Below, piece by piece: positions 1 through 35,767 of a stretch of DNA of 64,000 nt. Each line of letters begins with the position of its first letter. The first letter of the stretch is position 1. The translations under genes and the position numbers were made by a program. Under the pieces are notes generated by a model that made no database searches, was not told the origin of the DNA, and saw nothing but the letters and a program-made list of their open reading frames with translations. Origin of the DNA: Syntrophales bacterium (GTDB lineage Bacteria; Desulfobacterota; Syntrophia; Syntrophales; UBA4778); assembly GCA_028712885.1 (NCBI GenBank), contig JAQTPK010000003.1:11129-75128 (forward strand), written 5' to 3'.

Positions 1-2349
1 GCCCGTTTTTTCTTGAGCTCTCGCGGTGGATTGCCCTCGCGACAAGTTCTTTTCCCACGCCGGTTTCCCCGAAAATCAATACCGTTGAATTGCTGTGGGC
101 AACCTTTTTGATAAGGCGATGCAAACTCAAAGCTAAATTGCTCTTGCCGATGATTTCACCGAACGCAAGGGATTCCTCTATTTCTTCAACGTAATAAAGA
201 TTTTCCTCCAGCAGCTTCTTATTTAAACGGGCTATTTCTTCATTGGCCTGAACCCGGTCGATAGCGACTGCGATCTGCGATGCAAACGCGGAGAGCAGCT
301 TGATTATATCCGGGCTCAGGTTGAGCGAAAAGAATCGGCTGTCCTGATAAAGGACCCCGATCACCCTGTCGCCCAGGTTGAGAGGTGTGATAATGGCCTG
401 GCGGAAATGAGGATGCTCCTGCTCCCCTATTTTGTACTGGAGTATTTTATAATCATGCGACTGCGCCACTGCGTGTATGTCCCGCATTGAGACATGAAAT
501 TTTTCGTCCTGGACGTCCTCATGCAGCAGGTTTCGCGAGGCCGCCAGTTTAAGCTCGGGCCCGTTCTGATCCTTTGTGAACAGGGCAGACCTCTCCGCGC
601 CGGTTATCTTGGATATGGACGTGATTATACTTGTCAGCAGCGACTCCAGGTTCTCCTGCCTCGAGAGGGCGTCTCCCAGTTCAATCACGAAATCAAAAAG
701 GTTACCGTCGGCGTTCCGCGTGTCAGGGGGAGCAAAGCGCTTCAGGTCGGCAGGAAAGCAGTTGGGGGCAATCGGATTGAAGAATTCGTGGGCTTTGAGG
801 GCATAATTCCCGGCCTTTTGCCAATCGTGTATTTGAACGTAATTCCTGGCAAGTTCGGTCCTGATTTTGGCCAGCTCGAAAGTTGCTCCCATCTGCTCGA
901 CAGTTTTTTCGAGCTCATGAAGAATGTTGAACTTCTCCGCAAGGGGTGTCTTGTCCTCGGGCAGGCCCAGCTGAAGGCGCTGTATCATCCCGTACATGAG
1001 CGGATTAACCCGGTCCTTGTCCAGTTTGGACAGGTAATCGAAAACGGGCCTCAGATTGATGGGCGAAACGCCTTTTGAATGCAGGATGTAGCCGGTATCC
1101 AGGAGAGAGTAAAAATTCAAAATATGATGCCAGCTTGATTTTTTTATCTTCCACATGATCTTGTAATGCTCAACCGCCGCATCGAGATTGCCTTCCTGGC
1201 ACTCGATGCTCGACAGCCCCATTCCGGCCAGAACCTCCACCATCGGCAGGTTTTCTTTCCCGGCCAATTCGAGTGCCCGTTCGAAAAAAAACCGGCTGTT
1301 GCTGAGCTGCCTGGTTTCAAGGAGTATCAGGCCTGCAGTTACAAGCGCATACGATAACAGGGGCAGGTTGGCGGTTTTTTCACACTGGTTCTGAATCGCT
1401 TCCGTTATGCCCAGCCCTCTCTGCGGCATGCCGACCTGGGTATACCCAAGGGCAATATTGAGAGAGACCAGGTGGGAGAAATCATTTTCGTTTGCCGGCT
1501 CAAGCTCACCCAGGGAATTTTCGTAGGCTTCAATGGCTTTGAAGAACTGACATTTTATCAGGTAAATAAGCCCTTGTCCTTTCAATCCCCTTTTCAGCAG
1601 TTCCTGGTCTTCAATCTGCCGGATAATGTCCCAGCCCAGGTTGAAATAATAAACCGCCTGTTCATAACGGAAATACATCCAGTCGTTCTGTCCCAGGAGA
1701 AGGTACAGCGATGCCTGCGATCTCAAATCGCCGATGAAACGAGCCCTCTCCAGGGCGACGGAAAGGAGATTGTTTGTCTTCTTTATGCTGGGATCGAACA
1801 GCGACAACGAAGTCCGGTGTTCGATCGCATTGACAAAAGTGAGCCAGGAACTCTCCGGAAGATCGCGATCCGCAGGACTGATGATCTTGCCGACAAAATC
1901 AAGGATGGAATCGTAAAGAATTATAGCAGAGGAGATCCTGTGATTGGCCTCCTCGTAATGAGCCGCCTTCAAGATTACGCCGAGGTCCCCTTCCTGCACC
2001 CCCGCCTTGACATACTGGCGGGCTACCGTCAGGGCGCCGGCGCTGTCGTCTGTCATGTTCCTGGCAAGGATGTCGGCAGAATCCCGGTAGTAAGCCGCAA
2101 GATCCTGCCGGGGTATTGCAGAGATTATTTCCTCTTTGGGAAATTTCTCGGACCAGCAATAGTAACCCGAATTCTCGCTGCTCGGCACGATCCACTGATT
2201 TCGCTCAAAAATCAAGATCACGGAAACCAGCCGGGAAGTCTTTATATCGGGGAACCAATCGACTGAAAATAACTCCGGGAAGCATGCAAGGGCAAATACG
2301 ATTCCCTTATCTTCCTCATTAAACTGTGAAAGGATTACTTCAATATCCA
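1..2349 (-). CDS. Sigma-54-dependent transcriptional activator (enhancer-binding protein), C-terminus cut by window edge; about 760 aa of TPR-like plus GAF sensory region precede the AAA+ domain
   Basis: Absent from the supplied ORF track (no stop inside window). Manual reverse translation from ATG 2349-2347 reads MDIEVILSQFNEEDKGIVFALACFPE... and stays open to base 1, ending ...FGEIIGKSNLALSLHRLIKKVAHSNSTVLIFGETGVGKELVARAIHRESSRKNG (sigma-54 interaction domain, Walker A GETGVGKE). Preceding segment ...GAERSALFTKDQNGPELKLAASRNL...GDRVIGVLYQDSRFFS... is GAF-like. Plus-strand ORFs 494-1078 and 1472-2266 are antisense shadows of it. Confidence 0.85.
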
Positions 2350-2569
2350 TGCTCCTCTCCCCAACAAAGTCTGGTGACCTATATATCAAAAACGGCCCCT
2401 GTAAACACCTGTTAAATATTCAACAGCAGTCAATGGATTGGGATAATGAATTCTTGCCGGAGCAGCGTTGTGTCAGAAACGGCCATAATTGACACCTGTC
2501 GAAGTGTAAACTCATGTTTTCCGATATCTTTGCCATTCATAAATAACTGAATTTACTCGCGAATACCCA

Positions 2570-2585
2570 TGGCATAATTATTGTA
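2570..2585 (+). promoter_or_regulatory. Candidate sigma-54 (-24/-12) promoter TGGCAT-N5-TTGT
   Basis: TGGCATaattaTTGTa about 36 nt upstream of ATG 2621, in the divergent region next to a sigma-54 activator gene. The -24 element is good; the -12 reads GT instead of the conserved GC, so the match is imperfect. Confidence 0.3.
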
Positions 2586-2620
2586 AATTACTTCAGGTAT
2601 GGATATTGTGGGGTGAAACA

Positions 2621-3847
2621 ATGAATGAAAGTGAAAACGATGTTGTTATCGTCAGCGCGGTCAGAACTCCGTTCGGGCGATTTGACGGCGTACTCAAGAC
2701 AACTCTCAGCATGGACCTGGGCGTTTTCGCCGTTAAAGAAGCAGTCCGCCGGATCAACCTGTCCCCGGCGCTGGTGGACGAGGTTTATTACGGTACATGC
2801 ATTCCTGCCGAGTATGCCATCTATACGAATGTACCCGCGCGGCAAATCACGCTCCTGGCAGGCTTTCCGGAAAGCAATATCTCCCTGACCATCGACCGCG
2901 CCTGCTGCTCGTCCATGACCGCTCTGCGCATGGGCTGGCGGGCCATCAAGTCGGGGGCCGCGGAAATCGTCATCGCCTGCGGAGCGGAGAACATGGGCAA
3001 TGTGCCCCTCATCGCCTCCGCCGCCAAGGCCCGCTGGGGCGTACGGCTGGGTCCCATAGAACTGGAGGATGTCCTTTTTGAGCTGGGCTACGGGCGCAAG
3101 GGATTTGCCCCGGTTGCGACAGATGCGGGCCACGTCGCCGTGGAATACGGCGTCGGCCGCGAAAAGCAGGACGAGTGGGCTCTTGCCAGCCACCTCAAAT
3201 ATCATGCAGCCTTCAAAGCTGGCAAGTTCAATGTCGGCGAGGAACTCATGAAGCTTGAGATTCCCCGGAAGAAGGCGCCCATCGTCCTGGAAAGGGACGA
3301 GTCCCCCCGGGACAACCTGACCATGGAAAAAATGGCGGCCCTGAAAGCCGTATACGGCAGCCCGACCGTGACCGCAGGCAATGCGCCCGGCCTTAATTCG
3401 GGCGCATCGGCAATAGTCATCATGTCCAGGAAGAAAGCGGATTCGCTGGGGCTGAAAGTCCTCGGGAAAATTGCGGCCTGTGAGTGCGGCGCCGGCGCAC
3501 CGAAATACATGGCCTGCGTCCCCGCCCAGACTATAGAAAAGATGTTTTCCAAAACCGGGCACACTATCGATGAAATGGACCTGATCGAAATAAACGAGGC
3601 GTTCGCCGCCGTCACCCTGGTCTCCCTGAAGATGCTGGCAAAAGATGATCCGGATAAGTGGAAGTCTCTTCAGGACAAGACAAACGTCAATGGCGGCGCC
3701 ATAGCGATCGGACACCCGGTGGGCGCCAGCGGCGCGCGCATCACCATGACCATGATGTACGAGCTCCTGCGCCGCGGGGGCGGACGGGGCGTGGCCGCCA
3801 TTTGCGGAGGCTTGTCCCAGGGTGAGGCGATCCTGATTGAAGTTTGA
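2621..3847 (+). CDS. Acetyl-CoA C-acyltransferase (canonical thiolase)
   Basis: ORF 2606-3847; ATG 2621 preferred (GGGGTGA upstream). VVIVSAVRTPFGRF N-terminus, nucleophile motif DRACCSSMTAL, NVNGGAIAIGHPVGASGARI and CGGLSQGEA give the complete thiolase Cys-His-Cys set. Confidence 0.9.
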   Translation: MNESENDVVIVSAVRTPFGRFDGVLKTTLSMDLGVFAVKEAVRRINLSPALVDEVYYGTCIPAEYAIYTNVPARQITLLAGFPESNISLTIDRACCSSMTALRMGWRAIKSGAAEIVIACGAENMGNVPLIASAAKARWGVRLGPIELEDVLFELGYGRKGFAPVATDAGHVAVEYGVGREKQDEWALASHLKYHAAFKAGKFNVGEELMKLEIPRKKAPIVLERDESPRDNLTMEKMAALKAVYGSPTVTAGNAPGLNSGASAIVIMSRKKADSLGLKVLGKIAACECGAGAPKYMACVPAQTIEKMFSKTGHTIDEMDLIEINEAFAAVTLVSLKMLAKDDPDKWKSLQDKTNVNGGAIAIGHPVGASGARITMTMMYELLRRGGGRGVAAICGGLSQGEAILIEV

Positions 3848-3869
3848 TCTGATCTGATTGGAGGACCAA

Positions 3870-4325
3870 ATGTCTGATTGGCGGAAAGATGTGGAACCGT
3901 TGACCCTGAAAGGTCAAATAGCCATCCCCTACACGTGGCATGTCGGGGATGTGGGGAGCAGGTTCCTGGCGGCCCTGCGGGACGAAAAGAAGATTCTGGG
4001 GAGCAGGTGTCCGGAGTGCGGGAAAGTGTTTGTTCCGGCAAGAAAAAATTGCGGCGCCTGCTTTGTGGACATAAGCGAATGGGTGGAATTAAAACCGGAG
4101 GGCGTAATCGAGGCCTATACAATCGTGCATTACAGTCATCCCATCCAGCCCGTGAAGCCTCCCTTTGCCTACGCCCTGATAAAACTGGACGGAGCGGATG
4201 TGGGATTTCTTCACTTGATAAAAAAGGACCTGGATAAACTGAAAAACGGTCTCAGGGTGAAGGCTGAATTCAGCGGAGAGCGCACCGGGAAAATCCTGGA
4301 TATCGACTCCTTCGAGCTGGTTTAA
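3870..4325 (+). CDS. DUF35 Zn-ribbon/OB-fold protein (BbsA-like thiolase partner)
   Basis: ORF 3858-4325; ATG 3870 follows GGAGGA. Four-Cys ribbon CPECGKVFVPARKNCGAC followed by an OB-fold-like C-terminal half; small size and position next to thiolase-fold genes. Confidence 0.8.
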   Translation: MSDWRKDVEPLTLKGQIAIPYTWHVGDVGSRFLAALRDEKKILGSRCPECGKVFVPARKNCGACFVDISEWVELKPEGVIEAYTIVHYSHPIQPVKPPFAYALIKLDGADVGFLHLIKKDLDKLKNGLRVKAEFSGERTGKILDIDSFELV

Positions 4326-4345
4326 ATCCAGGGGAGGTAATGCAA

Positions 4346-5488
4346 ATGGATAAAGCGGCAATCGTCGGCGTAGCGCAGACCAGATATGAAAGAAGGAAAA
4401 AGGACCAGATCTTCGCCGATATGGTTTTTGACGTGACCCGGGCGGCATTGGACGATGCGGGACTCACGATAAACGACATCGACAGCGTCGTAACCTGTTC
4501 CAATGATTTTTACGACGGGCGCACCATCTCCGGCATGGCCGTCGGAGATGCCGCGGGCGGCATGGACAAGAACATCTCCACCGTGTCCGGGGACGGCACA
4601 TTCGGCGCGTTTTACGGGCTCATGAGGGTCCTGTCCGGCTATAAGGCCACTATCGTTGTCGCCCATTATAAGGGCAGCGAGGGAGATGTGAAAATTACCA
4701 CGAACGGCATGTTTGATCCCATTTTCCATCGCTTCCTGGGCATAGAGGCTATTTCCGCGGCGGCCTTGCAGGCCAATGCGTATATGAATCTTTACGGCCT
4801 CACGGAAGAGCAGTTTGCCGAAGTTTCCGTCAAGAATCACGGTAATGCCTTGAACAACCCCTATGCCCAGCTGGCGATGAAAATCACCGTGGCGGACGTG
4901 ATGAATTCAAAAAAAATAGCGGATCCACTCAAGCTGTTTGACTGCTGCCCGATCAGCGACGGCGCCGCGGCGATCATCATCGCCGGCGAAGAAATTGCGG
5001 CCCGCTCAAAGAAGAAGCCGGTGTGGATCAAGGGCGTCGCCCACTGCTGTGAGTCGTATCTGCTTGGGGACAGGGACCTGGCAAAACCCGTGGCTCTCTC
5101 CGAAGCCGCCAGGAAGGCATATGCGATGGCCGGCATAAAGAACCCTCTCAGGGAAATTGACGTGGCGGAAATTCTCGAGGCCTTCAGCTACATGGAACCC
5201 CTGTGGCTCGAAGGATTGGGATTCTGCAAACCCGGAGAAGGCGCAACCCTGATCGGCAAAGGAGTCACCGGCATGGGCGGCAGACTTCCGGTCAACCCGT
5301 CCGGCGGCGCGCTCTCCGCCAATCCCATCCTGGTTGCCGGGCTGGCGAGGCTGATCGAAGCGACCCTCCAGGTGCGCGGAGAAGCGGGGGCGAGACAGGT
5401 GGACAAAGTAAATACGGCGCTTGCACAAGGCTTTAACGGCCCCTGCGGTCAGAGCCACTGCGTGTGGATCATCGGCGGGAAGAAGTGA
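4346..5488 (+). CDS. SCP-x-type thiolase-fold protein lacking the nucleophilic Cys
   Basis: ORF 4340-5488; second ATG (4346) has GGAGG 8 nt upstream. Family motifs LFDCCPISDGAAAIIIAG and LPVNPSGGALS are present. The nucleophile position reads ISTVSGDGTFGAF (no Cys) and the His motif position reads SANPILVAG (no His). Confidence 0.75.
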   Translation: MDKAAIVGVAQTRYERRKKDQIFADMVFDVTRAALDDAGLTINDIDSVVTCSNDFYDGRTISGMAVGDAAGGMDKNISTVSGDGTFGAFYGLMRVLSGYKATIVVAHYKGSEGDVKITTNGMFDPIFHRFLGIEAISAAALQANAYMNLYGLTEEQFAEVSVKNHGNALNNPYAQLAMKITVADVMNSKKIADPLKLFDCCPISDGAAAIIIAGEEIAARSKKKPVWIKGVAHCCESYLLGDRDLAKPVALSEAARKAYAMAGIKNPLREIDVAEILEAFSYMEPLWLEGLGFCKPGEGATLIGKGVTGMGGRLPVNPSGGALSANPILVAGLARLIEATLQVRGEAGARQVDKVNTALAQGFNGPCGQSHCVWIIGGKK

Positions 5489-5495
5489 GGTGAAT

Positions 5496-6656
5496 ATGGG
5501 AAGAAAAGTAGCCGTTGTAGGAACAGGGCAGACCTATCACAGGAGCCACAGGCCTGATGTAACCTCCCGGGAGATGATCCGCGAGGCGGTGACATCGGCC
5601 CTGGCCGATGCTGATTTGAAGATAAAGGACATCGATGCCGTAGTCATCGGCAACATGGACCATTTCGAGTCCATCAATTACGTGGACACATACAGCATTG
5701 AGGGATCCGGGGCTTTCATGAAGCCGATCATGAAGGTATCGACCGGCGGCACAACCGGCGCCACGGTTGCTATCGCTGCATATTATCACGCAGCCTCCGG
5801 GCTGTTTGACCGCGTGCTGGCCGTCGGATTTGAAAAGAACTCGGAAAGCGACACAACAGGGGCGATCATCACCTGTTCAGACCCGATCTGGGACCGCTTC
5901 TCATATTCCGGCGCAATCCCGAGCCTGGCGACAGAGGCGACCGCTTACATGGAACAGTACGGGGCCACCCAGGAAGACGCGGCTCTGGTGGGCGAGCGGG
6001 ACCGCAATCATGCACTCAATAACCCGTATGCCCACTTGCAGAGGCCCCTCACCGTAAAGGACATCATGGCTTCGCCGATGCTGGCCTATCCCATCAAGCT
6101 GGGCGACATTTGTCCCCGCAGCGACGGTGCGTGCGCCATGATACTGGCGGCGGACGGAATTGCTCAGAAGACCGCTTCCAGGCCGGCGTGGTTCAAAGCG
6201 GTATCCGTACGGCACACGTACACATGGTTCGGGGATTCAACAGATTATAATAAGGGATTGGTTTCCATGCAGCAGGCATCTCAGGAAGCATATGCCCGGG
6301 CAGGGATAAGGAGCCCGGTCGACGAACTCGACGTGGCCGAGCTCTACCTTCCGTATACCTGGGCCGGCCTCAAGTGGATAGAGGACCTGGGACTTTGCGG
6401 CCGCGGAGAGGCCGCAAGGTTCGTGGGCGACAAGAACACCCATATGGGCGGGAAGCTGCCGATCAATCCGTCGGGGGGTGTCATTTCCACCAACTGCATC
6501 GGCGCAACGGCGATGCTGCGGGTCGCGGAGGCAGCCATCCAGGTCATGGGAAAGGGCGGCAAGCGGCAGGTGCCCGAGGCGAAAAACGCTCTCGCCACCG
6601 GGTTCGGCGGCTGTTTCTGGACCGATGTTGTAATTTTAAGTTCCGAAAGACCATAG
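5496..6656 (+). CDS. SCP-x-type thiolase-fold protein lacking the nucleophilic Cys (second paralog)
   Basis: Track start 5421 is an in-frame extension overlapping the upstream gene; ATG 5496 sits 8 nt after the upstream stop. KLGDICPRSDGACAMILA and LPINPSGGVIS motifs are present. The nucleophile position reads MKVSTGGTTGATVA (no Cys) and the His position reads STNCIGATA. Confidence 0.75.
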   Translation: MGRKVAVVGTGQTYHRSHRPDVTSREMIREAVTSALADADLKIKDIDAVVIGNMDHFESINYVDTYSIEGSGAFMKPIMKVSTGGTTGATVAIAAYYHAASGLFDRVLAVGFEKNSESDTTGAIITCSDPIWDRFSYSGAIPSLATEATAYMEQYGATQEDAALVGERDRNHALNNPYAHLQRPLTVKDIMASPMLAYPIKLGDICPRSDGACAMILAADGIAQKTASRPAWFKAVSVRHTYTWFGDSTDYNKGLVSMQQASQEAYARAGIRSPVDELDVAELYLPYTWAGLKWIEDLGLCGRGEAARFVGDKNTHMGGKLPINPSGGVISTNCIGATAMLRVAEAAIQVMGKGGKRQVPEAKNALATGFGGCFWTDVVILSSERP

Positions 6657-6674
6657 GGAAAGGGGATCAGATTA

Positions 6675-7154
6675 ATGTCAGCGGATAATCAGAAACCAGA
6701 AAGGCTGGAAGCCACCTTCGCTTTTCCGATGCTGTACGAGTGGTCAATAGGTCTTTACGGAAGCAGGTTTTTCCAGGAGATCATGAACAACAAGCGCTTT
6801 ATCGGGATTAAATGCCCCGGCTGCGGCAAAATCTACGTGCCGCCACGCCGGGTTTGCGGCCCCTGCTTCAAGGAGTTGACGGAACTGGTGCCTCTTTCGG
6901 ATACAGGAGTCCTCACCGCCTTTTCAGTGGTGAATTACCCCTTTATCGATCCGAACACCGGTTCCCGAAGACCGATCCCGTATACTTACGGATACATTCA
7001 GCTTGACGGCGCCGACAATATTTTTTCTCACATCATCAACGAGACGGACCTCAGCAGGATAAAAGTCGGGATGAAGGTTCGGGCGGTATTCAAGGACAGG
7101 GCCGAGATGAAGGGCAATATCGAGGACATAAAATATTTTGAATTGATCAGGTGA
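6675..7154 (+). CDS. DUF35 Zn-ribbon/OB-fold protein (second copy)
   Basis: CPGCGKIYVPPRRVCGPC ribbon plus OB-fold-like C-terminus; 159 aa; follows the thiolase-fold pair after an 18-nt gap. Confidence 0.8.
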   Translation: MSADNQKPERLEATFAFPMLYEWSIGLYGSRFFQEIMNNKRFIGIKCPGCGKIYVPPRRVCGPCFKELTELVPLSDTGVLTAFSVVNYPFIDPNTGSRRPIPYTYGYIQLDGADNIFSHIINETDLSRIKVGMKVRAVFKDRAEMKGNIEDIKYFELIR

Positions 7155-7170
7155 AGCCGGGAGGACACGA

Positions 7171-8304: not shown

Positions 8305-8322
8305 AAAGAACGGAGCAAAAAC

Positions 8323-9726: not shown

Positions 9727-9814
9727 CCGGCAGGGAAGCGGGTAAACCGGGGTCCGGTATTATCTTGCCGGATCCCATAAAGATCAATCAGACAACCAGG
9801 GAGAGCATCCGAAC

Positions 9815-10669
9815 ATGATCAAGAAGCTCTGTGTTATAGGCGCGGGCACCATGGGTGCCGGCATCGCGCAGGTGGCCGTTGAAAAAGGCGTGAAGGTCGC
9901 AATCCGTGATATCGAGGACCGCTTTGTTGAAAAGGGATTGGGGACAATCCGCAATTTCCTGGGCAGGAAAGTGGAAAAAGGAAAGCTGTCGAAAGATGAG
10001 CACGACGCGATACTCGGAAGACTGAAGGGTACAACGAGCATGGAGGATGCAACCGCCGGCGCAGACATGGTAATCGAGGCGGTTGTCGAGGACATGACGC
10101 TGAAACAGAATGTTTTTGCCGAACTGGATAAGCTCTGCCCGCCGCAGGTGATCCTGGCCTCCAATACGTCGACGCTCAGCATTACAGAAATCGCTTCGGC
10201 GACAAAAAACCCCCAACGCGTCCTGGGCACGCATTTCTTCAGTCCCGTCCCGGTGATGAGGCTTGTGGAGGTAATCTCCGGAGACAAAACGGACGAAAAA
10301 GTTCTGAAATCCGCTCTGGATATCATGGCCGCTTTCGGCAAGACCCCCATCCGGGCCAAGGATGTTCCGGGATTTATCGTGAACCGTTTTCTGTGCCTGC
10401 TGTACAACGAGGCGGCAGACCAGATTTACAAAGGATATGCCGCGGCGCAGGACATCGACCTCGGCCTCAAACTGGGTTCCAATCATCCCATGGGTCCGAT
10501 CGAGATCATGGATATGGCCGGAGTTGATGTCGTCTATAACGCTCTGAAGGCGCTGTACGAGATGACGGGCGAGGAGAGATACAAACCATCTCCACTGTTT
10601 GAGCGGATGATCAGGGAAAACAGGCTCGGCAGGAAAACAGGCCGCGGATTTTACGACTACACGAAATAA
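9815..10669 (+). CDS. hbd: 3-hydroxyacyl-CoA (3-hydroxybutyryl-CoA) dehydrogenase
   Basis: KLCVIGAGTMGAGIAQV NAD motif, ILASNTSTLSITEIA, GTHFFSPVPVMRLVEVI, PGFIVNRFL; 284 aa. Confidence 0.9.
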   Translation: MIKKLCVIGAGTMGAGIAQVAVEKGVKVAIRDIEDRFVEKGLGTIRNFLGRKVEKGKLSKDEHDAILGRLKGTTSMEDATAGADMVIEAVVEDMTLKQNVFAELDKLCPPQVILASNTSTLSITEIASATKNPQRVLGTHFFSPVPVMRLVEVISGDKTDEKVLKSALDIMAAFGKTPIRAKDVPGFIVNRFLCLLYNEAADQIYKGYAAAQDIDLGLKLGSNHPMGPIEIMDMAGVDVVYNALKALYEMTGEERYKPSPLFERMIRENRLGRKTGRGFYDYTK

Positions 10670-10681
10670 GCGGAGAAAATA

Positions 10682-11827
10682 ATGGATTTCATTTTGAACG
10701 AAGACCAGAAAATGCTGCGGGACACGGTCCGGCGCATCGCCGGGGAGAAGTTCGCGCCCATTGCGGCGGAGATTGATGAAAAGGAGGTCTTCCCCTCCGA
10801 TTCAGTTTCAGTCCTGAGAGACAACGGCCTGCTGGGCATTCAGATACCCGAGGAATACGGCGGCGCGGGAGCTGGCATGCTGTCGATGGTTCTTGTCGTG
10901 GAAGAAGTCGCGCGTGTCTGCTGCTCCACGTCCGTCATCCTGACCACCCAGGCACTGGCCAGCGACCCCCTGCTTCTGGCAGGCACGGAAGAGCAGAAGA
11001 AAAATTTCCTTCGCCGGCTTGCGACGGGCGATTGCCTGGGCGCCTGCGGGATCACCGAACCGGGAGCCGGTTCCGATGTCTCCGGGATGAAAACAACCGC
11101 CAGGAAGGTGGACGGCGGGTATGTGCTGGACGGCGCCAAAATCTTTATCACCAACGGCGGCGAGGCCGAGATCGTGACGGTGCTGGCCTGCACGGACAGG
11201 GATAAAGGCAACCGCGGCATCAGCATGCTGATCCTGGATAAAGGCATGCCGGGTTTCACTGTCGGCAAGAAGGAACACAAAATGGGGCTCCATGGTTCGG
11301 ATACGCGCGAGCTCGTGTTTGATAACGTGTTTGTTCCGGCGGACAGGCTGCTGGGCCCCGAAGGGAGCGGCTTCCGCACTCTGATGACGACTTTCAATTT
11401 CACAAGGCCCGCCGTAGGCGGGCAGGCGCTTGGCCTGGCGCAGGGAGCGTTGGAGGCTTCAATCAGGTACGCCAGAGAGCGCGTGCAGTTCGGCAAGCCC
11501 CTTTCCTCGTTCCAGGGCATGCAGTGGATGCTCGCGGAGATGGCTCTTGGCGTGGAGACGGCGCGGTCCATCGTGTACCGGGCCGCCTCGATGATCGACA
11601 CCGAGCCGGAATCTCCGGAGCTCGCCAAAATAGCCTCCATGGCCAAGTGGTATGCGTCCGATGTCGCAATGAAGGTGACCACTGATGCAGTCCAGGTCTT
11701 CGGCGGCTACGGCTATGTCCGGGAATACCCCGTCGAGAGAATGATGCGCGACGCAAAGATCACCCAGATATATGAAGGAACCAACCAGATCCAGAGGACA
11801 ATCGTAGCGGGCCAGATACTGAGATAA
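10682..11827 (+). CDS. Acyl-CoA dehydrogenase, short-chain/butyryl-CoA type
   Basis: [14 protein letters not shown]; [33 protein letters not shown] with the canonical YEG catalytic Glu. Confidence 0.9.
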
Positions 11828-11889
11828 AGGGCGACGCCCGCGAGATAAAAGGAATCAGGCGTGTTGATCGTTGCTAAGGAGAACGAGCA

Positions 11890-13047
11890 ATGGATTTCAC
11901 ATTCAGCAATGAACAGAAAATATTTCGCGACACCATCTACCGCTTCTGCAGGGAAGAGGTCGCGCCTCTTTGCGAAGAATCCGACCGTAAAGGCGAGTTC
12001 AGTTTCGAGGTCTGGCGGAAGCTCGGCGGCATGGGGCTCCTGGGACTTCCCATACCGGAAACTTACGGGGGCGCCGGCGCTGATTTCATAACCTGCTGCA
12101 TTGCGGGCGAGGCCATGGGGCACGCCGGCGTAGACGGCGGCCATCTCCTGACCCTTGGCGCCCACAGCTATCTTTGCGCCGCCAATATCGTCGAACACGG
12201 TACGGAGGAGCAGAAGCAAAAATATCTTCCGGGCCTGGCGACGGGCGACGACATCGGCTGCATGTGCCTGACGGAACCGAGCTGCGGTTCGGATGCGGGA
12301 GCCCTGCTGACGGCGGCCGTGAGGAAAGGCGACAAATATATCCTTAACGGCTCCAAGACCTTCATCACCAATGCCCCGGTTGCCGGGGTATTCATTGTAT
12401 TCGCCACGCTCGACCGATCAACAAAGCACAAGGGAATAACTTGCTTCATCGTGGACCGTGACACACCCGGCCTGTCCACGGGTAATCCCATGCACAAGAT
12501 GGGCGTCAAGTGTTCGACTACCTCCGAGGTCTTTTTTGAGGACTGCGAGGTCCCCGCGGAGAACCTGCTTGGCGGCGAGGGGAACGGCTGGAATATAGCC
12601 CTGGGGGGAGTTGAGTGGGACCGCAGCACCCTGCTCTCCCCTTTCCTCGGGAACGCGATGTTCACGCTGGAGAGCTGCTCCCGTTATGCCAACGAGAGAC
12701 GGGCCTTCGGCCAGCCGATCGGGGAATTCCAGTCCATCCAGAACCGCATAGCCGATATGCGGGTCTATGTAGAAGCGGCAAGGCTGGCCATCTATCGGGT
12801 TGCGGCTTCCAAGGACAACGGAGCCAGACTCAACCCGCTGCTCGCCTCCGTCAACAAGATGTACGTGGGCGACAAGGGATTTGAGATGTGTTCCGCCGCC
12901 GTGGACCTCTTTGGCGGTTACGGTTACATCCACGAATACCCTGTGGAGCGCGGCATGAGAGATGCGAAACTGGGACAACTCGGCGGCGGAACATCCGATA
13001 TCATGCGCATGATCGTCGCCCGGGCTATGGTGGGGAGACAGAAATGA
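11890..13047 (+). CDS. Acyl-CoA dehydrogenase (IVD-like C-terminal motif)
   Basis: CLTEPSCGSDAGAL; FGGYGYIHEYPVERGMRDAKLGQLGGGTSDIMR; AAGGAGA SD. Confidence 0.85.
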   Translation: MDFTFSNEQKIFRDTIYRFCREEVAPLCEESDRKGEFSFEVWRKLGGMGLLGLPIPETYGGAGADFITCCIAGEAMGHAGVDGGHLLTLGAHSYLCAANIVEHGTEEQKQKYLPGLATGDDIGCMCLTEPSCGSDAGALLTAAVRKGDKYILNGSKTFITNAPVAGVFIVFATLDRSTKHKGITCFIVDRDTPGLSTGNPMHKMGVKCSTTSEVFFEDCEVPAENLLGGEGNGWNIALGGVEWDRSTLLSPFLGNAMFTLESCSRYANERRAFGQPIGEFQSIQNRIADMRVYVEAARLAIYRVAASKDNGARLNPLLASVNKMYVGDKGFEMCSAAVDLFGGYGYIHEYPVERGMRDAKLGQLGGGTSDIMRMIVARAMVGRQK

Positions 13048-14189
13048 TCGATTACGAATTGACCAGTGCGCAAAAGGAATTGCGGGAAAGGACAGCCCTC
13101 TTCTGTGCGTCTGAAATAGCGCCCTCGGCATCGGCGCTGGACAGCGCACCCCGGGACGAAGCAGGTCGCATCGTGCGGGAGGCCATTAAGAAGCTGGGAA
13201 AGGCCGGTTACCTCGATCTCCTTGTAAATGGAGATTTCGTGAGCCGGTGCGTTGCCGGCGAGGAGCTCGCCAGGAGCTGTCCTTCCACTTTCTTTTCCGC
13301 CATGTATTCCGGAACGTCATTCGGGTTGGCCATTAAATCATTCGGCAGCAGGGCCCAACAGGATCGTTATCTGCCGGGCATCATCTCCGGAGAGAGAATC
13401 GGCGCCCTGGCGTGTACGGAAGACAGCGCGGGCTCGGACCTCTCCTTGATTGAAACCAGGGCCGAACTCGGCGGCGATAAATGGATCCTGACCGGATCCA
13501 AGGACTTCGTGACCAACGCGCCTGTCGCCGATTTCTTCCTTGTATCGGCCTGGACGGACCGCGAGGCGGGTTGCGAAAAAGGCTTGTCGTTTTTCGTGGT
13601 GGACCGGGGGATATCCGGTTTTGATACTACGGAAACAGTGGAAACGATGGGCCTGCGCGGCGCCCCGGCGGCGGGCATCAGGCTTTCCCGCTGCAGCGTC
13701 CCCGCCGGAAATCTTCTGGGCAAAGCCGGGCAGGGTCATGCAATCCTGGGGTGCATCAACGAATGGCTGAAAATTTCCCTTTCGGCAATGTCCCTGGGAA
13801 TCGGAGTGGCTTGCATGGAGGTCTCGACAAGTTACAGCAAAAGCAGGAGCGCCTTCGGCAGGCCCATCGGCCTTTTCGAGGGCGTGGGGGCCAAGCTGGC
13901 AATCATGTTCACCAATAACGATCTGGGACGCATGCTTACCCTGAGGGCCGCCTGGAGCATGGACCGCAGGGAGGCGGAATCATCCGTGCTCGCCTCCTGC
14001 GCCAAGCTTTTCACTAGCGAATCCGCAAATAAGACAGCTGACCTGGCCATGCAGGTGCATGGCGGGCACGGTTATATTAAGGGAACTGCAATCGAGCGCC
14101 TGTACCGTGATGCGCGTTTTGCCGAGCTTGCGTGCGGGACTTCCGAGATGCAGCGGGCCTTTATCGCCCGTGACAGTTTGAACCGTTAA
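13044..14189 (+). CDS. Acyl-CoA dehydrogenase family protein (divergent)
   Basis: Track start 12888 is an overlap artefact; ATG 13044 overlaps the upstream stop (ATGA). ACTEDSAGSDLSLI; HGGHGYIKGTAIERLYRDARFAELACGTSEMQR (LAC replaces YEG). Confidence 0.8.
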   Translation: MIDYELTSAQKELRERTALFCASEIAPSASALDSAPRDEAGRIVREAIKKLGKAGYLDLLVNGDFVSRCVAGEELARSCPSTFFSAMYSGTSFGLAIKSFGSRAQQDRYLPGIISGERIGALACTEDSAGSDLSLIETRAELGGDKWILTGSKDFVTNAPVADFFLVSAWTDREAGCEKGLSFFVVDRGISGFDTTETVETMGLRGAPAAGIRLSRCSVPAGNLLGKAGQGHAILGCINEWLKISLSAMSLGIGVACMEVSTSYSKSRSAFGRPIGLFEGVGAKLAIMFTNNDLGRMLTLRAAWSMDRREAESSVLASCAKLFTSESANKTADLAMQVHGGHGYIKGTAIERLYRDARFAELACGTSEMQRAFIARDSLNR

Positions 14190-14239
14190 AAGGCCTGATT
14201 GATTGCAGCTGATTTTGATTCCAGGGAAGCGATATCAAA

Positions 14240-15025
14240 ATGAAAAGAGATTACGTGAATTATGAGGTCGAAGGACGTCTGGCCGTGGTGACTGTCGATA
14301 ATCCGCCGATGAATCCCTTGAGCAGACGGGTCATGCAGGAGCTGGGAGAAATATTTGATGAGATAGAATCCCGTACGGACATCGGCGTTGCCATAATTGC
14401 CGGAGGCGGGACAAAGGCCTTTGTCGCCGGGGCGGATATCAAAGGCTTCAAAGATTTCATAGGCAGCCGGGAAGCAGCCTTCGCGAGCTCGCGCGGGATG
14501 CAGGCCGTTTTTGCAAAAATTGAAAATTCCCGGGTTGTCGTGATTGCCGCCATTAACGGCCTGGCATTGGGCGGAGGCTGCGAGCTCGCGGCAGCCTGCG
14601 ACATCAGGATAGGCGGCGACAATATCGTAATCGGCGTACCCGAAGTAAAGCTCGGCCTCATCCCCGGGGCCGGCGGCACGCAGCGCCTGGCAAGACTGAT
14701 CGGAAAAGGACGAGCCAAGATGATGGTCTTAACCGGAGCTTTCTTCAATGCCGGGGACGCGGTCCGGATGGGCCTGCTGGACAAGGTTGTTCCGGCGGAA
14801 GACGTCCTTTCCGAGGCAAAGCAAATCGCCGCCGCTATTCTCGCCAATGCGCCGCTGGCGGTGGAGGCGGCAAAAAAGGCCATAAACCAGGGTATCGAAC
14901 TGGGCCTCGAGGACGGCATGCTGCTCGAGGCCGCATTGGAAAGTGATTTATTCGTGACAGAAGACTTGCAGGAGGGGGTGGGCGCCTTTATCGAGAAAAG
15001 AACTCCCTCTTTTCGGCGCAAATAA
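14240..15025 (+). CDS. Enoyl-CoA hydratase/isomerase (crotonase)
   Basis: FVAGADIKGF, LGGGCELAAACDIRI, PEVKLGLIPGAGGTQRL (both catalytic Glu positions present). Confidence 0.9.
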   Translation: MKRDYVNYEVEGRLAVVTVDNPPMNPLSRRVMQELGEIFDEIESRTDIGVAIIAGGGTKAFVAGADIKGFKDFIGSREAAFASSRGMQAVFAKIENSRVVVIAAINGLALGGGCELAAACDIRIGGDNIVIGVPEVKLGLIPGAGGTQRLARLIGKGRAKMMVLTGAFFNAGDAVRMGLLDKVVPAEDVLSEAKQIAAAILANAPLAVEAAKKAINQGIELGLEDGMLLEAALESDLFVTEDLQEGVGAFIEKRTPSFRRK

Positions 15026-15061
15026 AAACCCGCCACCCTTTATCTGAGGAGATACGCAGAA

Positions 15062-15829
15062 ATGACAGATGCAGATATTGTTCTTTATGAAAAGCAGGAC
15101 GCAATCGCCTTCCTGACAATAAATCGCCCGGAAGCAATGAACGCCCTCAACACGGAGGTCAACCTGAAGCTGATAGAATGCCTCGACAGGGCGGAAAACG
15201 AACAGGATATCAGGGTCATAATCCTGAAAGGCGCGGGAGACGCCGCCTTTATTGCGGGCGGCGATATAAAGGAGATGATCGATAAAGACGCCATGGGCGC
15301 CCGGAATTATGCCCTGGCCGCCAAGCGGGTCGTAGACAGGATATGGAACTTGAGCAAGCCGGTAATTGCCTCCATTCAAGGTTTCTGCCTGGGCGGCGGC
15401 CTTGAGTACGCAATGGCCTGCGATCTTCGGATAGCCTCGGACAAGGCCCGGTTCGGGCAGCCGGAAATAAACATCGGAATCATGCCGGGCAGCGCGGGGA
15501 CGCAGAGGCTTTCCCGCCTGATCGGAATCACCAAAGCGAAGGAGCTTTGTTTCACGGGCGACATGATCGGGGCGGCGGAAGCGCTCGATCTTGGCCTGAT
15601 CAATAAAGTCCACCCGGCGGATGCGCTTCTGGAGGAAACGATCGCGCTTGCGAAGAAGATCGCTTCCAAAAGCGCGCCGGCGCTCAGCTTGATGAAATCG
15701 GCCATCAACAAGGGAACCGGGATCGACCTCGAATCGGCCTCGCTTTTTGAGATTGATTGTTTCGGCCTGTGTTTCTCAACGGAGGAGCAAAAGCAGGCAA
15801 TGAACAGGTTTGTCAACAAGAAAAAATGA
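15062..15829 (+). CDS. Enoyl-CoA hydratase/isomerase (crotonase), second copy
   Basis: FIAGGDIKEM, CLGGGLEYAMACDLRIA, GQPEINIGIMPGSAGTQRL. Confidence 0.9.
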   Translation: MTDADIVLYEKQDAIAFLTINRPEAMNALNTEVNLKLIECLDRAENEQDIRVIILKGAGDAAFIAGGDIKEMIDKDAMGARNYALAAKRVVDRIWNLSKPVIASIQGFCLGGGLEYAMACDLRIASDKARFGQPEINIGIMPGSAGTQRLSRLIGITKAKELCFTGDMIGAAEALDLGLINKVHPADALLEETIALAKKIASKSAPALSLMKSAINKGTGIDLESASLFEIDCFGLCFSTEEQKQAMNRFVNKKK

Positions 15830-15889
15830 AGGGGAGTAATTGTATCGAACTGCTGTTGATGAAATAGTTTAAGAGGAGGAGAAGAAGAA

Positions 15890-17251
15890 ATGGTCAAGAC
15901 GGATTGGATGTACCAGTATAAAAAGAAACTATGTACGGCGGAAGCTGCCGCCCGGGCGGTTTGTGACGACGACTTCATAATGACGCCCCTGTGTCTGGGC
16001 CAGCCAAGCACCCTCATACCGGACGCCATCGCCGACCGGAAGGACGAACTCAAAAATGTCGAGTGGCGCTGGAACCTTGCCATCAGGCCCTATAAAATGT
16101 TTAAACCTGAATACAGCAGCACCTTCAAGATTACTTCCGCTTTCACCGGAACACCATTTATCCTTTCCCAGTTTCAGGGAATGGGCTATGGGAACTACGC
16201 TCCTGCTACAGTATTCTCATCCATAAAGCAGTGGACTTACTACCGCAAGCCGGATGTCATTGTCTGCATGGTCACCCCTCCGGATAAAGACGGGTTTCTC
16301 AACATAGGCCCCGACCTGATGTTTTCCAGAGGATTGCTGGAGGGAAAATCAACTTCGCGTGGTTTCGTGGGTGGACCGCGAACGCTCATCGGGGAAGTGA
16401 ACGATCAATATATTCCTGTGTGCGGCGACGCCAGGCTGCACATATCCAATTTTACCCATATCGTGGAAAACTCTTCAACTTTGCCGGCCTTCCCGTCACC
16501 TCAGCCCAAGGATAAGCACAGGAAAATGGCCGAACACGTGGTCAGCCTTCTCAGGGACAGGGACAGCATCCAGATCGGAATAGGGGCCGTCCCCATGCTG
16601 ATTTCGGACCTTATCGCCCATTCGGATCTGAAGGATATCGGCCTCTTCACGGAGATGCTGCCGACGGGAGCTCCGGTCTGGCAGGAGAAAGGGATTCTGA
16701 CGGGAAAATACAAAACGTTCCGTCCCGGGGAGATTTCGGCAAGCTTCATCGGCCCGGTGAAAGAATTATTTGATTTCGTCAGGAATAACGAACAAATCGG
16801 ATTTTATGCAGGTGACGTAATGAACAACCCCGCCGTGATCGGAGCCGAGGAGCAGATGGTTGGAATCAACGGCGCGCTGGAAATTGATATGGCCGGCCAG
16901 GTTGCCTCCCTGACATTAGGCAACAGGATGGTTTCGGGTTATGGCGGACAGTCCGATTTTGCCATGGGCTGCCGCATGTCCCGATTCGGCAGGATGATAA
17001 TAGTCATGGCTTCGGCAACAAAAGACAAAAACGGCAAATTGATCAGCCGCATTGTCCCCAACCTCTCCCCCGGGGCGCTTGTCGGGACCCTTGCCGTCCA
17101 CGTGGATTATGTCGTGACGGAAAACGGAATTGCCGGGCCGATGGATGGAATGTCTATTGACGAAAGGGCGGAAGCCCTGATCAAGATTGCACATCCCGAG
17201 CTGCAGGATGAGCTCGTAAAGAGCGCCAAGGAGAAAGGCCTGTTCAAGTAA
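15890..17251 (+). CDS. Acetyl-CoA hydrolase/transferase family CoA-transferase (4-hydroxybutyrate CoA-transferase-like)
   Basis: 453 aa; SGYGGQSDF (GxGGxxDF) motif, overall N- and C-domain layout of the family; strong SD GAGGAGGAG. Confidence 0.8.
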   Translation: MVKTDWMYQYKKKLCTAEAAARAVCDDDFIMTPLCLGQPSTLIPDAIADRKDELKNVEWRWNLAIRPYKMFKPEYSSTFKITSAFTGTPFILSQFQGMGYGNYAPATVFSSIKQWTYYRKPDVIVCMVTPPDKDGFLNIGPDLMFSRGLLEGKSTSRGFVGGPRTLIGEVNDQYIPVCGDARLHISNFTHIVENSSTLPAFPSPQPKDKHRKMAEHVVSLLRDRDSIQIGIGAVPMLISDLIAHSDLKDIGLFTEMLPTGAPVWQEKGILTGKYKTFRPGEISASFIGPVKELFDFVRNNEQIGFYAGDVMNNPAVIGAEEQMVGINGALEIDMAGQVASLTLGNRMVSGYGGQSDFAMGCRMSRFGRMIIVMASATKDKNGKLISRIVPNLSPGALVGTLAVHVDYVVTENGIAGPMDGMSIDERAEALIKIAHPELQDELVKSAKEKGLFK

Positions 17252-35341: not shown

Positions 35342-35520
35342 ATACAGAATGGCTGATTCATAGAGGTCAATACCTCCGTTCCTGCACCTTGCCCTGAGGT
35401 GCCTGGAACTGGAAGGAGGTGAACCAGAGAAGGGCAAAAAGAAAATCCATTCACGGGTAAAGGACAACGAAGAAAGACCGGCAGTATTCAGAAGAAAGCT
35501 AAATACGTATTACGCCCGCC

Positions 35521-35648
35521 TTACAGGCTGTCCAAAATTGCTCAGATGCAAGGCGCGCGAGGACGGGAAGCGCAGCGTACTTAAGCGTACGTGAGCATTC
35601 CCGCCCGGAGCGCAACGCAGCAGATGAGTGATTTTGGACAGCCTGTAA
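35521..35648. repeat. 128-bp long imperfect palindrome (MITE-like or structured RNA)
   Basis: 18-nt perfect termini ttacaggctgtccaaaat / attttggacagcctgtaa; the interior is partly self-complementary around a central gcgtacTTAAgcgtac. Confidence 0.7.
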
Positions 35649-35651
35649 AAT

Positions 35652-35676
35652 AAAAAAACCCGGCGGAATCGCCGGG
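35652..35676 (-). terminator. Rho-independent terminator downstream of tRNA-fMet
   Basis: CCCGGCG-gaat-CGCCGGG flanked by an A-tract (plus strand) = U-tract on the minus strand, 15 nt after the tRNA 3' end. Confidence 0.75.
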
Positions 35677-35690
35677 CTGTTTTTATTTTT

Positions 35691-35767
<77 letters not shown>

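Follow-up and report, generated by a model that had tools for sequence, protein, structure and literature searches.

Gene Content and Layout of the Operon

The DNA analysed here, referred to as the window, is a stretch of 64,000 nucleotides from an uncultured Syntrophales bacterium (assembly GCA_028712885.1, contig JAQTPK010000003.1, positions 11,129 to 75,128 of the forward strand). Close to its left end it carries an array of co-directional genes for acyl-CoA-transforming enzymes on the plus strand, which extends from a first ATG at position 2621 to a last stop codon at 17251 and which, according to the listing of open reading frames (ORFs) and their translation, consists of 14 genes (G1 to G14). 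Central to the analysis are the four genes G2 to G5, encoding two SCP2-thiolase-like (SCPx) proteins that have lost the catalytic residues of thiolases and two DUF35 proteins. An earlier interpretation made from the letters alone, in the following termed the sequence-only reading, had described a fifteen-gene operon with exactly these limits. The limits hold, while the count has to be lowered to 14, which is also the total of that reading's own enzyme list; fifteen is reached only if the divergent regulator is included. Each enzyme family on that list is confirmed by Pfam.

The first gene, G1 (2621-3847), encodes a classical thiolase (Thiolase_N/C). It is followed by G2 (3870-4325) for a stand-alone DUF35 protein with the Pfam domains zf-ChsH2 and OB_ChsH2_C, by G3 (4340-5488) and G4 (5496-6656) for the SCP2-thiolase-like subunits A and B, as assigned by Pfam and HMMER alignment, and by G5 (6675-7154) for a second stand-alone DUF35 protein (Pfam). 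G6 (7171-8304) codes for an acyl-CoA dehydrogenase (ACAD) of the long-chain acyl-CoA dehydrogenase (LCAD)/isovaleryl-CoA dehydrogenase (IVD) type, recognized by Pfam and by its motifs, and G7 (8323-9726) for a FAD flavoprotein of the amine-oxidase/phytoene-desaturase (CrtI) superfamily (Pfam Amino_oxidase). The remaining genes encode a 3-hydroxyacyl-CoA dehydrogenase of the Hbd type (G8, 9815-10669; Pfam), an ACAD of the Bcd/short-chain acyl-CoA dehydrogenase (SCAD) type (G9, 10682-11827; Pfam and a YEGT motif), an IVD-like ACAD (G10, 11890-13047; Pfam and solved IVD relatives), an atypical ACAD without the base glutamate (G11, 13044-14189; Pfam and alignment), two crotonase-family enoyl-CoA hydratases, namely, G12 (14240-15025; Pfam, GGGCE and PE motifs) and G13 of the short-chain type (15062-15829; Pfam), and a family-I CoA-transferase of the AbfT type, belonging to the acetyl-CoA hydrolase/transferase family (G14, 15890-17251; Pfam and the solved relative 3GK7).

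Successive genes from G1 to G14 are separated by 22, 14, 7, 18, 16, 18, 88, 12, 62, -4, 50, 36, and 60 nt, the negative value denoting an ATGA overlap at the G10/G11 junction, and a purine-rich, Shine-Dalgarno-like stretch precedes each of the 14 genes. A single-operon architecture for the array 2621-17251 is supported. The 88-nt gap between G7 and G8 is its only long intergenic gap. Within this gap, a weak hairpin followed by a T-rich stretch is found at 9746-9758, which may act as a partial terminator or mark a processing site at the border of two modules.

The SCP2-Thiolase-Like Pair and Its DUF35 Partners

In HMMER alignments with solved SCP2-type thiolases, including 7YVY and 6HSJ, the site of the nucleophilic cysteine is occupied by Ser in G3 (TVSGDG) and by Gly in G4 (STGGTTG). 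The HDCF/HDAF motif reads LEAF in G3 and YLPY in G4, and the GHP motif is replaced by ANP and TNC, respectively. Because the nucleophilic cysteine and both catalytic histidines are missing, G3 and G4 cannot be thiolases. The pair had been called "Cys-less" before; this designation is correct and can be extended to the loss of the GHP histidine and the HDCF histidine in both proteins. The altered motifs of G4 are under strict conservation. YLPY, TNC, and STGGTTG do not vary among 35 homologues with identities down to 74%, and they are the same in the sulfate reducer Desulfatibacillum alkenivorans AK-01; the invariant columns of these 35 homologues comprise Y284, P286, Y287, N333, and C334. A proline takes the Cys/His position of the motif in G4; the invariant Tyr287 and Cys334 are candidates for the second acid/base residue of an aldolase. 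Over more than 100 sequence clusters, G4 remains at least 74% identical. G3 is less constrained, with the AK-01 orthologue having Glu at the cysteine site, YDAF, and SHA.

At the first position equivalent to HDCF a tyrosine is present in G4 but not in G3. In the aldolases Ltp2 (YDHF) and Sal (YDCY), the tyrosine of this motif is the catalytic base, and a DUF35 partner is required (PMC12329534); the mapping of the G4 tyrosine onto these enzymes is transitive, via the SCP2-thiolase alignment and that publication. Stand-alone DUF35 proteins are described as pairing with thiolase-fold aldolases (PMC10398937). Both DUF35 proteins of the operon possess a C4 zinc ribbon (CPEC...CGAC in G2 and CPGC...CGPC in G5) together with an OB fold.

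A scan of the family, for which representatives of clusters at 50% identity were taken (7375 matches), resolves three patterns. Canonical thiolases show ACASG / HDCF / GHP, a large G4-type clade shows TGGTTG / E-x-Y-x-x-F/S / NPIGA, and a G3-type clade shows xDGxxA / ANP / GxxGCxQ, which is the signature of the subfamily of G3. Among the G4-type representatives is a 388-amino acid "thiolase domain-containing protein" of Streptomyces with the motif EMYVPFSW, which is 41% identical to G4. It is encoded in the neighbourhood of a crotonase, a 313-amino acid fused double DUF35 protein, and a 349-amino acid SCPx protein with the G3-type signature. The possible aldolase module was the strongest part of the sequence-only reading, and it gains from the lack of thiolase catalytic residues, from the aldolase-type tyrosine in G4, and from the resemblance of the unit to this actinobacterial counterpart.

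The residue pattern also bears on the possibility that G2-G5 form a true thiolase for a bulky 3-oxoacyl-CoA, as a counterpart of the benzoylsuccinyl-CoA thiolase BbsAB serving the anaerobic breakdown of aromatic or alicyclic side chains. The solved relatives of the pair include BbsB (7PXP; E 2e-35 to 3e-35), weak matches to the NCBIfam models of BbsA and BbsB are obtained, and in several related loci a PaaK-like aryl-acid ligase gene precedes G7. Every thiolase, BbsB included, requires the acyl-accepting cysteine and the histidines which G3 and G4 lack, and the BbsB equivalog model scores 125-132 bits against a cut-off of 750. With the residue test already speaking against it, a BbsAB-like function is considered very improbable.

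Conservation of the Unit among Relatives

For the analysis of gene order, the window proteins were mapped by tblastn onto 20 genome loci; greedy ORF calling was dropped, since long antisense ORFs hid real genes. A metagenome scan with the G4 alignment yielded 80 further loci, of which 33, flanked on either side by 6 kb or more, were used for counting. Neighbours were counted within 10 kb of the unit, and the sample is biased to close relatives and contains some redundancy. The order DUF35-SCPxA-SCPxB-DUF35 (G2-G5) is fixed in all 33 loci. The CrtI-like gene is found nearby in 23 and the thiolase gene in 22 of them, so that these two are the usual companions of the unit, followed by Hbd (16/33), the G6-type ACAD (12/33), the D1-type gene described below (10/33), the sigma-54 activator (10/33), and a gene for a beta-keto-acid cleavage enzyme (BKACE; 9/33). 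The examination of synteny across genomes that had been called for thus comes out in favour of a conserved module. Because this SCPx/DUF35 unit, and not the set of beta-oxidation genes, is the conserved part, the earlier view that the operon is neither a plain beta-oxidation nor a butyrate pathway is upheld.

Within the 20 genome loci, the block made up of the activator and G1-G7 recurs in Syntrophales and the downstream half varies. The operon would accordingly be regarded as two-layered, with G1-G7 conserved and G8-G14 variable, and the 88-nt gap after G7 coincides with the switch in gene content among relatives. Orthologues of G6 with 61-94% identity adjoin the unit in many loci, including L029 and L030 (L numbers denote the individual loci). 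G14 directly follows G7 in eight loci (among them L007, L009, L012, L014, L016, L017, and L023), and some relatives add a gene for an AMP-ligase, a PaaK-like ligase, a MaoC hydratase, or a BKACE. Close copies of G10 and G11 (at least 99% identity) occur only in this species, and G10-like genes of 42-62% identity are present near the unit in a few metagenomic loci. In AK-01 (CP001322, about 5,081,600-5,090,000), the locus consists of genes for an AMP-ligase, thiolase, DUF35, SCPx, SCPx, DUF35, a PP2C-like protein, and a CrtI-like protein (66% identity).

A diverged paralogous unit is carried by 13 loci, in eight of which it is accompanied by a CrtI-like gene of its own (22-26% identity). These paralogous units, located at 2563-7061 in L029, at 2549-7064 in L030, and in 13 loci among L034-L113, show the order thiolase-SCPxA-SCPxB-DUF35-DUF35, are 35-48% identical, and lie directly upstream of the orthologous unit. 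Their existence suggests a family of related modules with different specificities. Since the paralogous units often have their own CrtI-like gene, the link between unit and flavoprotein has been kept through duplication.

The steady presence of a thiolase gene can be accommodated in another way. The SCPx/DUF35 unit might be a non-catalytic or condensing partner of G1, comparable to the archaeal thiolase/HMG-CoA-synthase/DUF35 complex, by which an unstable or thermodynamically unfavourable 3-oxoacyl-CoA would be channelled; in the condensing direction it might serve reverse beta-oxidation or the C6 route of propionate dismutation in Smithella. An intact thiolase gene directly precedes the unit here and in 22 of the 33 loci, the paralogous units begin with a thiolase gene as well, and G3 and G4 match the thiolase of the archaeal complex (6ESQ) at E 1e-36 to 1e-37. 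The host belongs to a Syntrophales/Smithella-like lineage, and according to PMC8892533 the genes for propionate dismutation in Smithella have yet to be identified. On the other hand, G1 is a classical thiolase and not of the SCP2 type that binds DUF35 in the archaeal complex, and the invariance of Tyr284, Asn333, and Cys334 in G4 points to a catalytic and not a scaffolding role. The Smithella route is kept low because no mutase is present for the proposed C6 rearrangement and because AK-01, a sulfate reducer, and Streptomyces-like layouts devoid of a thiolase have the unit as well. As a whole, a role as partner of G1 appears unlikely.

The Accompanying Enzymes

G1 is a competent thiolase judging from its translation, in which the catalytic motifs are intact (Cys in ACCSS, His in GHPVGASG, Cys in ICGG). 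It scores 373 bits with TIGR01930 (cut-off 240), has acetyl-CoA acetyltransferases as its best solved relatives (E 4e-86), and resembles acetoacetyl-CoA thiolases. G8 reaches 348 bits with PRK05808, below the cut-off of 408, and G12 and G13 keep both crotonase glutamates.

The four ACADs are of different kinds. G9 is an ordinary Bcd/SCAD-type enzyme with the canonical base in YEGT. G6 has its nearest relatives among bacterial LCAD-like ACADs and carries IGGGT and, in NER, the base glutamate. For G10, the best solved relatives are isovaleryl-CoA dehydrogenases (E 2e-98) and GGGT is kept; isovaleryl-CoA dehydrogenases are characterized by the catalytic Glu254 together with Gly or Ala at position 376, and the base position of IVD is occupied in G10 by Asp (WDR) instead of Glu. 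G11 is without Glu at both canonical base positions (ACGT). Because it lacks both glutamates and overlaps G10, G11 may be the partner subunit of G10 in a heteromer. Thus, the three IVD-like or atypical ACADs noticed earlier are indeed present as G6 (LCAD/IVD type), G10 (IVD-like with Asp), and G11 (without both Glu).

None of the 14 products and two neighbours reached the cut-off of an NCBIfam equivalog model; this holds also for the Bbs, cyclohexanecarboxyl-CoA, glutaryl-CoA, pimeloyl-CoA, steroid thiolase, and EchA19 models. In the proposed comparison with characterized pathways, the operon is thus not assignable to any of them.

The best solved relative of G14 is the 4-hydroxybutyrate CoA-transferase 3GK7 (E 7e-69), with the catalytic Glu being kept (HSEM versus FTEM); the butyryl-CoA:acetate equivalog model TIGR03948 gives 217 bits against a cut-off of 675. 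Not far from G14, on the minus strand at 18261-19694, lies a gene of the AbfD family (4-hydroxybutyryl-CoA dehydratase/vinylacetyl-CoA isomerase), the best solved relative of whose product is 1U8V (E 3e-82). It is situated 107 nt upstream of D1 on the same strand and does not adjoin the unit in any related locus examined.

With these two relatives, a short-chain route from butyrate, crotonate, or 4-hydroxybutyrate comes into view, in which an AbfT-like activation and an AbfD-like or Bcd step would lead via crotonyl-CoA to acetyl-CoA, the other genes being extra paralogues. The nearest solved relatives of G14, with its retained glutamate, and of the AbfD-like gene product are those of 4-hydroxybutyrate metabolism, and the top models of G1, G8, G9, and G13 are acetoacetyl-CoA thiolase, Hbd, Bcd/AcrC, and short-chain crotonase. 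Against this stands that none of these genes attains an equivalog cut-off, that EtfAB is absent among the ORFs scanned from the rest of the 64-kb window, and that the AbfD-like gene is on the other strand and missing from all related loci examined. Moreover, a strain variant of 99.9% identity lacks G14 and half of G13, and such a route has no need of the conserved Cys-less SCPx/DUF35 unit, of G6, or of G7. The short-chain route is hence regarded as an improbable explanation.

The flavoprotein G7 matches the Pfam family Amino_oxidase (1e-30), and its AlphaFold2 model has a predicted local distance difference test (pLDDT) value of 90.7. The top Foldseek matches are 3KA7, NicA2, 4REP, and 5MOG, all at 14-20% identity. 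TM-scores are 0.74 to rice phytoene desaturase (PDS), 0.67 to a CrtI-type desaturase, and 0.59 to NicA2. The label "CrtI-like" is justified at the level of the superfamily fold only, as the family threshold is failed (crtI_fam, TIGR02734, 40.5 bits versus a cut-off of 238.1; HpnE 74.8 versus 283). The neighbours of G7 are acyl-CoA enzymes, not carotenoid genes.

BKACE genes (PF05853) were located at 16715-17635 in L008, 4083-5009 in L028, 17707-18573 in L029, and 17700-18488 in L030; there is none in the window. Their recurrence may be taken as a hint to a free beta-keto acid somewhere in the wider pathway.

In combination, G7 and the BKACE genes allow a substrate to be envisaged that is a nitrogen-containing or beta-keto acid, with G7 as a NicA2-like anaerobic amine dehydrogenase, in analogy to the fermentation of lysine and beta-amino acids by BKACE, CoA-transferase, and thiolase. 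NicA2 and monoamine and putrescine oxidases are among the top Foldseek matches in addition to the Amino_oxidase assignment, and BKACE is encoded near the unit in the four loci given above and in 9 of the 33 metagenomic ones. Pfam scans of the window, in turn, revealed no BKACE, aminomutase, aminotransferase, or ammonia-lyase; the TM-score of G7 is higher to phytoene desaturase than to NicA2, and four ACADs and two crotonases would be left without explanation. An amine-type pathway is quite unlikely.

Proposed Function

From gene content and residue patterns, the operon is tentatively proposed to break down, by hydration and subsequent retro-aldol cleavage, an acyl-CoA that is beta-substituted or hindered in another way, a reading that heads the alternatives considered here with a prospect somewhat short of even. 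Activation would be by the AbfT-type CoA-transferase G14 and hydration by the two crotonases. By analogy with the alpha-beta-beta-alpha arrangement of Sal-ShyDUF35, G3 and G4 would most likely make up a heterodimer, with the two DUF35 proteins stapling it together, and the gene order DUF35-A-B-DUF35 would mirror this arrangement with the heterodimer at its centre. The G2-G5 complex would most likely be a retro-aldol lyase, cleaving a 3-hydroxyacyl-CoA into acetyl-CoA (or propionyl-CoA) and a ketone or aldehyde, with the conserved tyrosine of G4 serving as the base. Its substrate would be a 3-hydroxyacyl-CoA that is barred from the dehydrogenase and thiolase steps, for instance, a tertiary alcohol derived from a beta-branched chain. 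The remainder would enter ordinary short-chain beta-oxidation by the Hbd-type G8, the Bcd-type ACAD G9, and the thiolase G1, and G10/G11 would constitute a species-specific IVD-like ACAD pair in the variable layer. The IVD/LCAD-type ACADs and the CrtI-superfamily fold fit a beta-methyl or isoprenoid acid; a substrate of this type is favoured but unproven. ACADs of the IVD/LCAD type accommodate branched or bulky chains, and polyene-handling enzymes are among the members of the flavoprotein superfamily; a beta-substituted substrate would also agree with the aldolase-type motif and with the Ltp3/Ltp4-like layout.

Several points weigh against the retro-aldol reading. The structure model of G4 has a pLDDT of 75.8 with poorly ordered active-site loops (low pLDDT at 330-337), and its fold search retrieves SCP2-thiolase and the Ltp2 aldolase without separating aldolases from thiolases. 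Where the aldolases carry Asp-His or Asp-Cys, the sequence of G4 reads Leu-Pro, and the motif of G3 varies, being LEAF here and YDAF in AK-01. The assignment of the Streptomyces unit to the Rv3521-Ltp4-Ltp3 type of M. tuberculosis is presumptive, being based on layout and protein sizes. For the fold of G7, amine dehydrogenases score as well as desaturases. The cluster is without an enzyme for the expected ketone or aldehyde product, containing neither a carboxylase nor an aldehyde dehydrogenase. The constant proximity of a competent classical thiolase is left without an explanation by the retro-aldol step, as are the recurrent BKACE genes of the relatives, and G14, the AbfD-like neighbour, a crotonase, Hbd, and thiolase would alone suffice for the conversion of 4-hydroxybutyrate to acetyl-CoA.

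A more far-reaching version, which has to be called speculative and rather unlikely, concerns the set of six genes for thiolase, DUF35, SCPx-A, SCPx-B, DUF35, and the CrtI-like flavoprotein. In a manner not described before, it would allow strict anaerobes to pass a beta-methyl or other beta-substituted block in acyl-CoA degradation without a carboxylase and without ATP. The acyl-CoA would first be dehydrogenated and then hydrated to a tertiary 3-hydroxyacyl-CoA, which the heteromeric Cys-less lyase would split in a retro-aldol reaction; the flavoprotein would deal with unsaturation of the chain. If true, this would be an anaerobic alternative to the geranyl-CoA and methylcrotonyl-CoA carboxylase routes for isoprenoid acids and isovalerate, with a wide distribution among the Thermodesulfobacteriota that live in digesters, sediments, and aquifers.

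In these three habitats, the final and energy-limited steps by which organic matter is degraded are performed by Syntrophales and related sulfate reducers. Should the unit be a retro-aldol lyase, a chemistry known only from aerobic steroid degraders would extend to strict anaerobes, the handling of branched or hindered acids without ATP-consuming carboxylation would be explained, and a marker gene set for the process in metagenomes would be at hand. Because the core is present in the cultivable D. alkenivorans AK-01, its function is directly testable.

Regulation

Divergently from the operon, on the minus strand, a gene for a sigma-54 enhancer-binding activator is located (2-2350, cut by the window start). 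Of its 1045 residues, 783 are inside the window and comprise, according to Pfam, a TPR-like N-terminus, a GAF domain, and the first 50 residues of the AAA+ domain (Sigma54_activat). They are identical to the corresponding part of the full-length 1045-amino acid protein encoded on contig L001 of the same species, which displays the Walker A motif GETGVGKE, the sigma-54 contact loop GSFTGA, and a C-terminal helix-turn-helix. The divergence of the operon from a sigma-54 activator, as first noticed on the letters, is thereby borne out. The divergent activator is syntenic in five related loci (L007, L009, L012, L019, and L022), while in AK-01 a different sigma-54 activator with a kinase and a PAS sensor is found at the same place.

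The candidate sigma-54 promoter TGGCAT-AATTA-TTGTA (TGGCATAATTATTGTA) is positioned at 2570-2585 on the plus strand, 36-51 nt 5' of the first ATG; the GG of the -24 element is present, and the -12 element has GT, not GC. In the window, the sigma-54 pattern is observed 8 times versus 22.7 expected at 2 mismatches, which is not above chance. As the pattern count is insignificant by itself, positional conservation in orthologues is needed for a promoter call. Four orthologous intergenic regions carry TGGCTCGACATTTGCA, TGGTACGATTTTTGTA, TGGCGCAATATTTGCA, and TGGCACGAGAGTTGCT in the corresponding promoter region. These elements fit GG-N10-G(C/T), with TGGCACGAGAGTTGCT representing the perfect consensus, and, wherever their offset was determined, are situated 66-70 nt 5' of the first ATG. 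An inverted repeat, GTGTCA-N14-TGACAC, is found at 2470-2495, some 75-100 nt 5' of the -24 element, and in four orthologous intergenic regions a TGTCAA...TTGACA repeat is aligned and conserved with it. The repeat is a candidate upstream activating sequence to which the activator would bind. Taken together, the activator synteny, the -24/-12 element with its orthologous counterparts, and the conserved upstream repeat make sigma-54 control of the operon, as postulated by the sequence-only reading, well supported, though not proven.

A second putative regulatory gene, D1 (17269-18153), is on the minus strand and convergent with the operon. It encodes a SpoIIE/PP2C-type phosphatase-like protein, an assignment that comes from the homologue family: the window copy itself is without a Pfam match, seven of eight family members match SpoIIE (best E 1e-13), and the metal-binding Asp residues are invariant across the family. 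Homologues of D1 lie beside the core in L008, L021, L025, L027 (AK-01), L028 (a Desulfomonile metagenome-assembled genome, MAG), L029, and L030, and in these loci the D1-type gene is co-directional with the core. Because it is a recurrent co-directional neighbour of the core elsewhere, D1 is likely a regulatory partner, and a regulatory phosphatase would be the simplest reading of its family relationship. Beside this may be set the Ser/Thr kinase domain of the AK-01 activator.

Source and Surroundings of the Operon

The G7 protein is found in identical form on anaerobic-digester metagenome contigs and in the MAG GCA_029547085.1; the digester datasets JGI 3300010347 and 3300010345 contain this population. 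Among genomes, the nearest are MAGs of uncultured Syntrophales, Syntrophaceae, and Smithella-like bacteria (76-87% identity).

Two contigs of the same species, L001 and L002, are 99.9% identical to the window over positions 1-15725 and then diverge inside G13, where an opposite-strand WYL-domain regulator (in L001 from 17403 onwards) replaces the 3' end of G13, G14, and D1. A third contig, L003, supports the window arrangement at 15725. The divergence would reflect a structural difference between strains or else an assembly join. Beyond the window start, L001 (1-641, minus strand) contains a gene for a 509-amino acid AMP-dependent acyl-CoA ligase after the activator gene; this ligase is only 29% identical to the one heading the AK-01 cluster, and orthology of the two is doubtful.

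The other 47 kb of the window encode signalling proteins, S-adenosylmethionine-cycle enzymes, a resistance-nodulation-division (RND) efflux system, and transporters. No electron-transferring flavoprotein (Etf), carboxylase, or aldehyde dehydrogenase was found when the larger ORFs of this part were scanned. A gene for a 996-amino acid DUF748/AsmA-family protein (20493-23483, minus strand; DUF748 952 bits) is adjoined by genes for a DUF554 membrane protein (19793-20476) and an NMT1-like binding protein (23504-24862). The signalling block at 26528-36815 includes a GAF-PAS HisKA_3 kinase, a multi-PAS histidine kinase, a response regulator with an HD domain, and a response regulator fused to an adenylate/guanylate cyclase domain. 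At 49644-59077 (minus strand), the RND efflux set consists of an AcrB-type pump, an HlyD-type adaptor, and two outer-membrane factors and is interrupted by a gene for a 683-amino acid ABC1/UbiB-type atypical kinase (55544-57595).

Comparison with Known Systems

The cluster was not found to be described in full-text literature searches for DUF35 in connection with Desulfatibacillum, Smithella, Syntrophaceae, sulfate reducers and proteomics, or syntrophs. The same holds for searches with AK-01 locus tags Dalk_408x-413x (guessed), for a study on methanogenic limonene degradation, and for studies on branched-chain fatty acids in Syntrophales.

With the clostridial genes for butyrate and 4-hydroxybutyrate metabolism, the operon shares the enzyme families of G1, G8, G9, G12/G13, G14, and the AbfD-like neighbour. 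It differs in that no EtfAB was found, in scores below the equivalog cut-offs, and in the fact that these genes are here the variable and not the conserved part. G7 has the FAD Rossmann motif and the overall fold in common with phytoene desaturase (CrtI/PDS), whereas identity is 15-16% and carotenoid genes are not nearby; its closest structures are two uncharacterized archaeal oxidoreductases, 3KA7 (Methanosarcina) and 3NRN. In the archaeal thiolase/HMG-CoA-synthase/DUF35 complex, DUF35 and enzymes of the thiolase superfamily are likewise found side by side, and its thiolase is structurally close to G3 and G4. However, this SCP2-type thiolase keeps Cys and His and has HMG-CoA synthase as its partner, while the SCP2-type proteins of the present operon lack the cysteine, which leaves G1, of the classical type, as its only competent thiolase.

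Further parallels are offered by the steroid side-chain aldolases Ltp2-ChsH2 and Sal-Shy. They share with the unit the SCP2-thiolase fold (6OK1 at rank 6 and 9MYR at rank 41 of the G4 search), the lack of a nucleophilic cysteine, the tyrosine at the first HDCF-equivalent position, and an obligatory zinc-ribbon DUF35 partner; identity to G4 is about 22-27% in the Foldseek alignments to 9MYR and 6OK1. In contrast to those homodimers, two diverged subunits are encoded here. G4 has YLPY instead of YDHF or YDCY, the acid catalyst being Tyr344 in Ltp2 and Cys304 in Sal, and the hydratases are crotonases and not MaoC domains fused to DUF35.

Another relative is the Ltp3/Ltp4-type unit of actinobacteria. 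Its Ltp3 and Ltp4, proposed to be aldol-lyases and genetically required for degrading C24-branched sterol side chains, are cited in this role by PMC6593523 with reference to Wilbrink et al. 2012. In both cases, two adjacent and different Cys-less SCPx genes occur together with two DUF35 modules and a neighbouring gene for a crotonase-family hydratase. The 388-amino acid Streptomyces protein, presumably of this type by the layout of its locus, has Y-V-P-F where G4 has Y-L-P-Y, and xDGxxA / ANP / GPCxQ is shared by the 349-amino acid member and G3. The two systems differ in that two separate DUF35 genes flank the SCPx pair here and one fused protein is encoded there. The host of the present unit is a strict anaerobe with a sigma-54 activator and no sterol genes nearby, and a classical thiolase and a CrtI-like flavoprotein are constant partners. 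Summarizing, the proposed retro-aldol chemistry has precedents in aerobic steroid degraders; what is new is the combination of a presumably heteromeric, Cys-less thiolase-fold unit having split DUF35 proteins with a flavoprotein and a thiolase, in strict anaerobes and under sigma-54 control.

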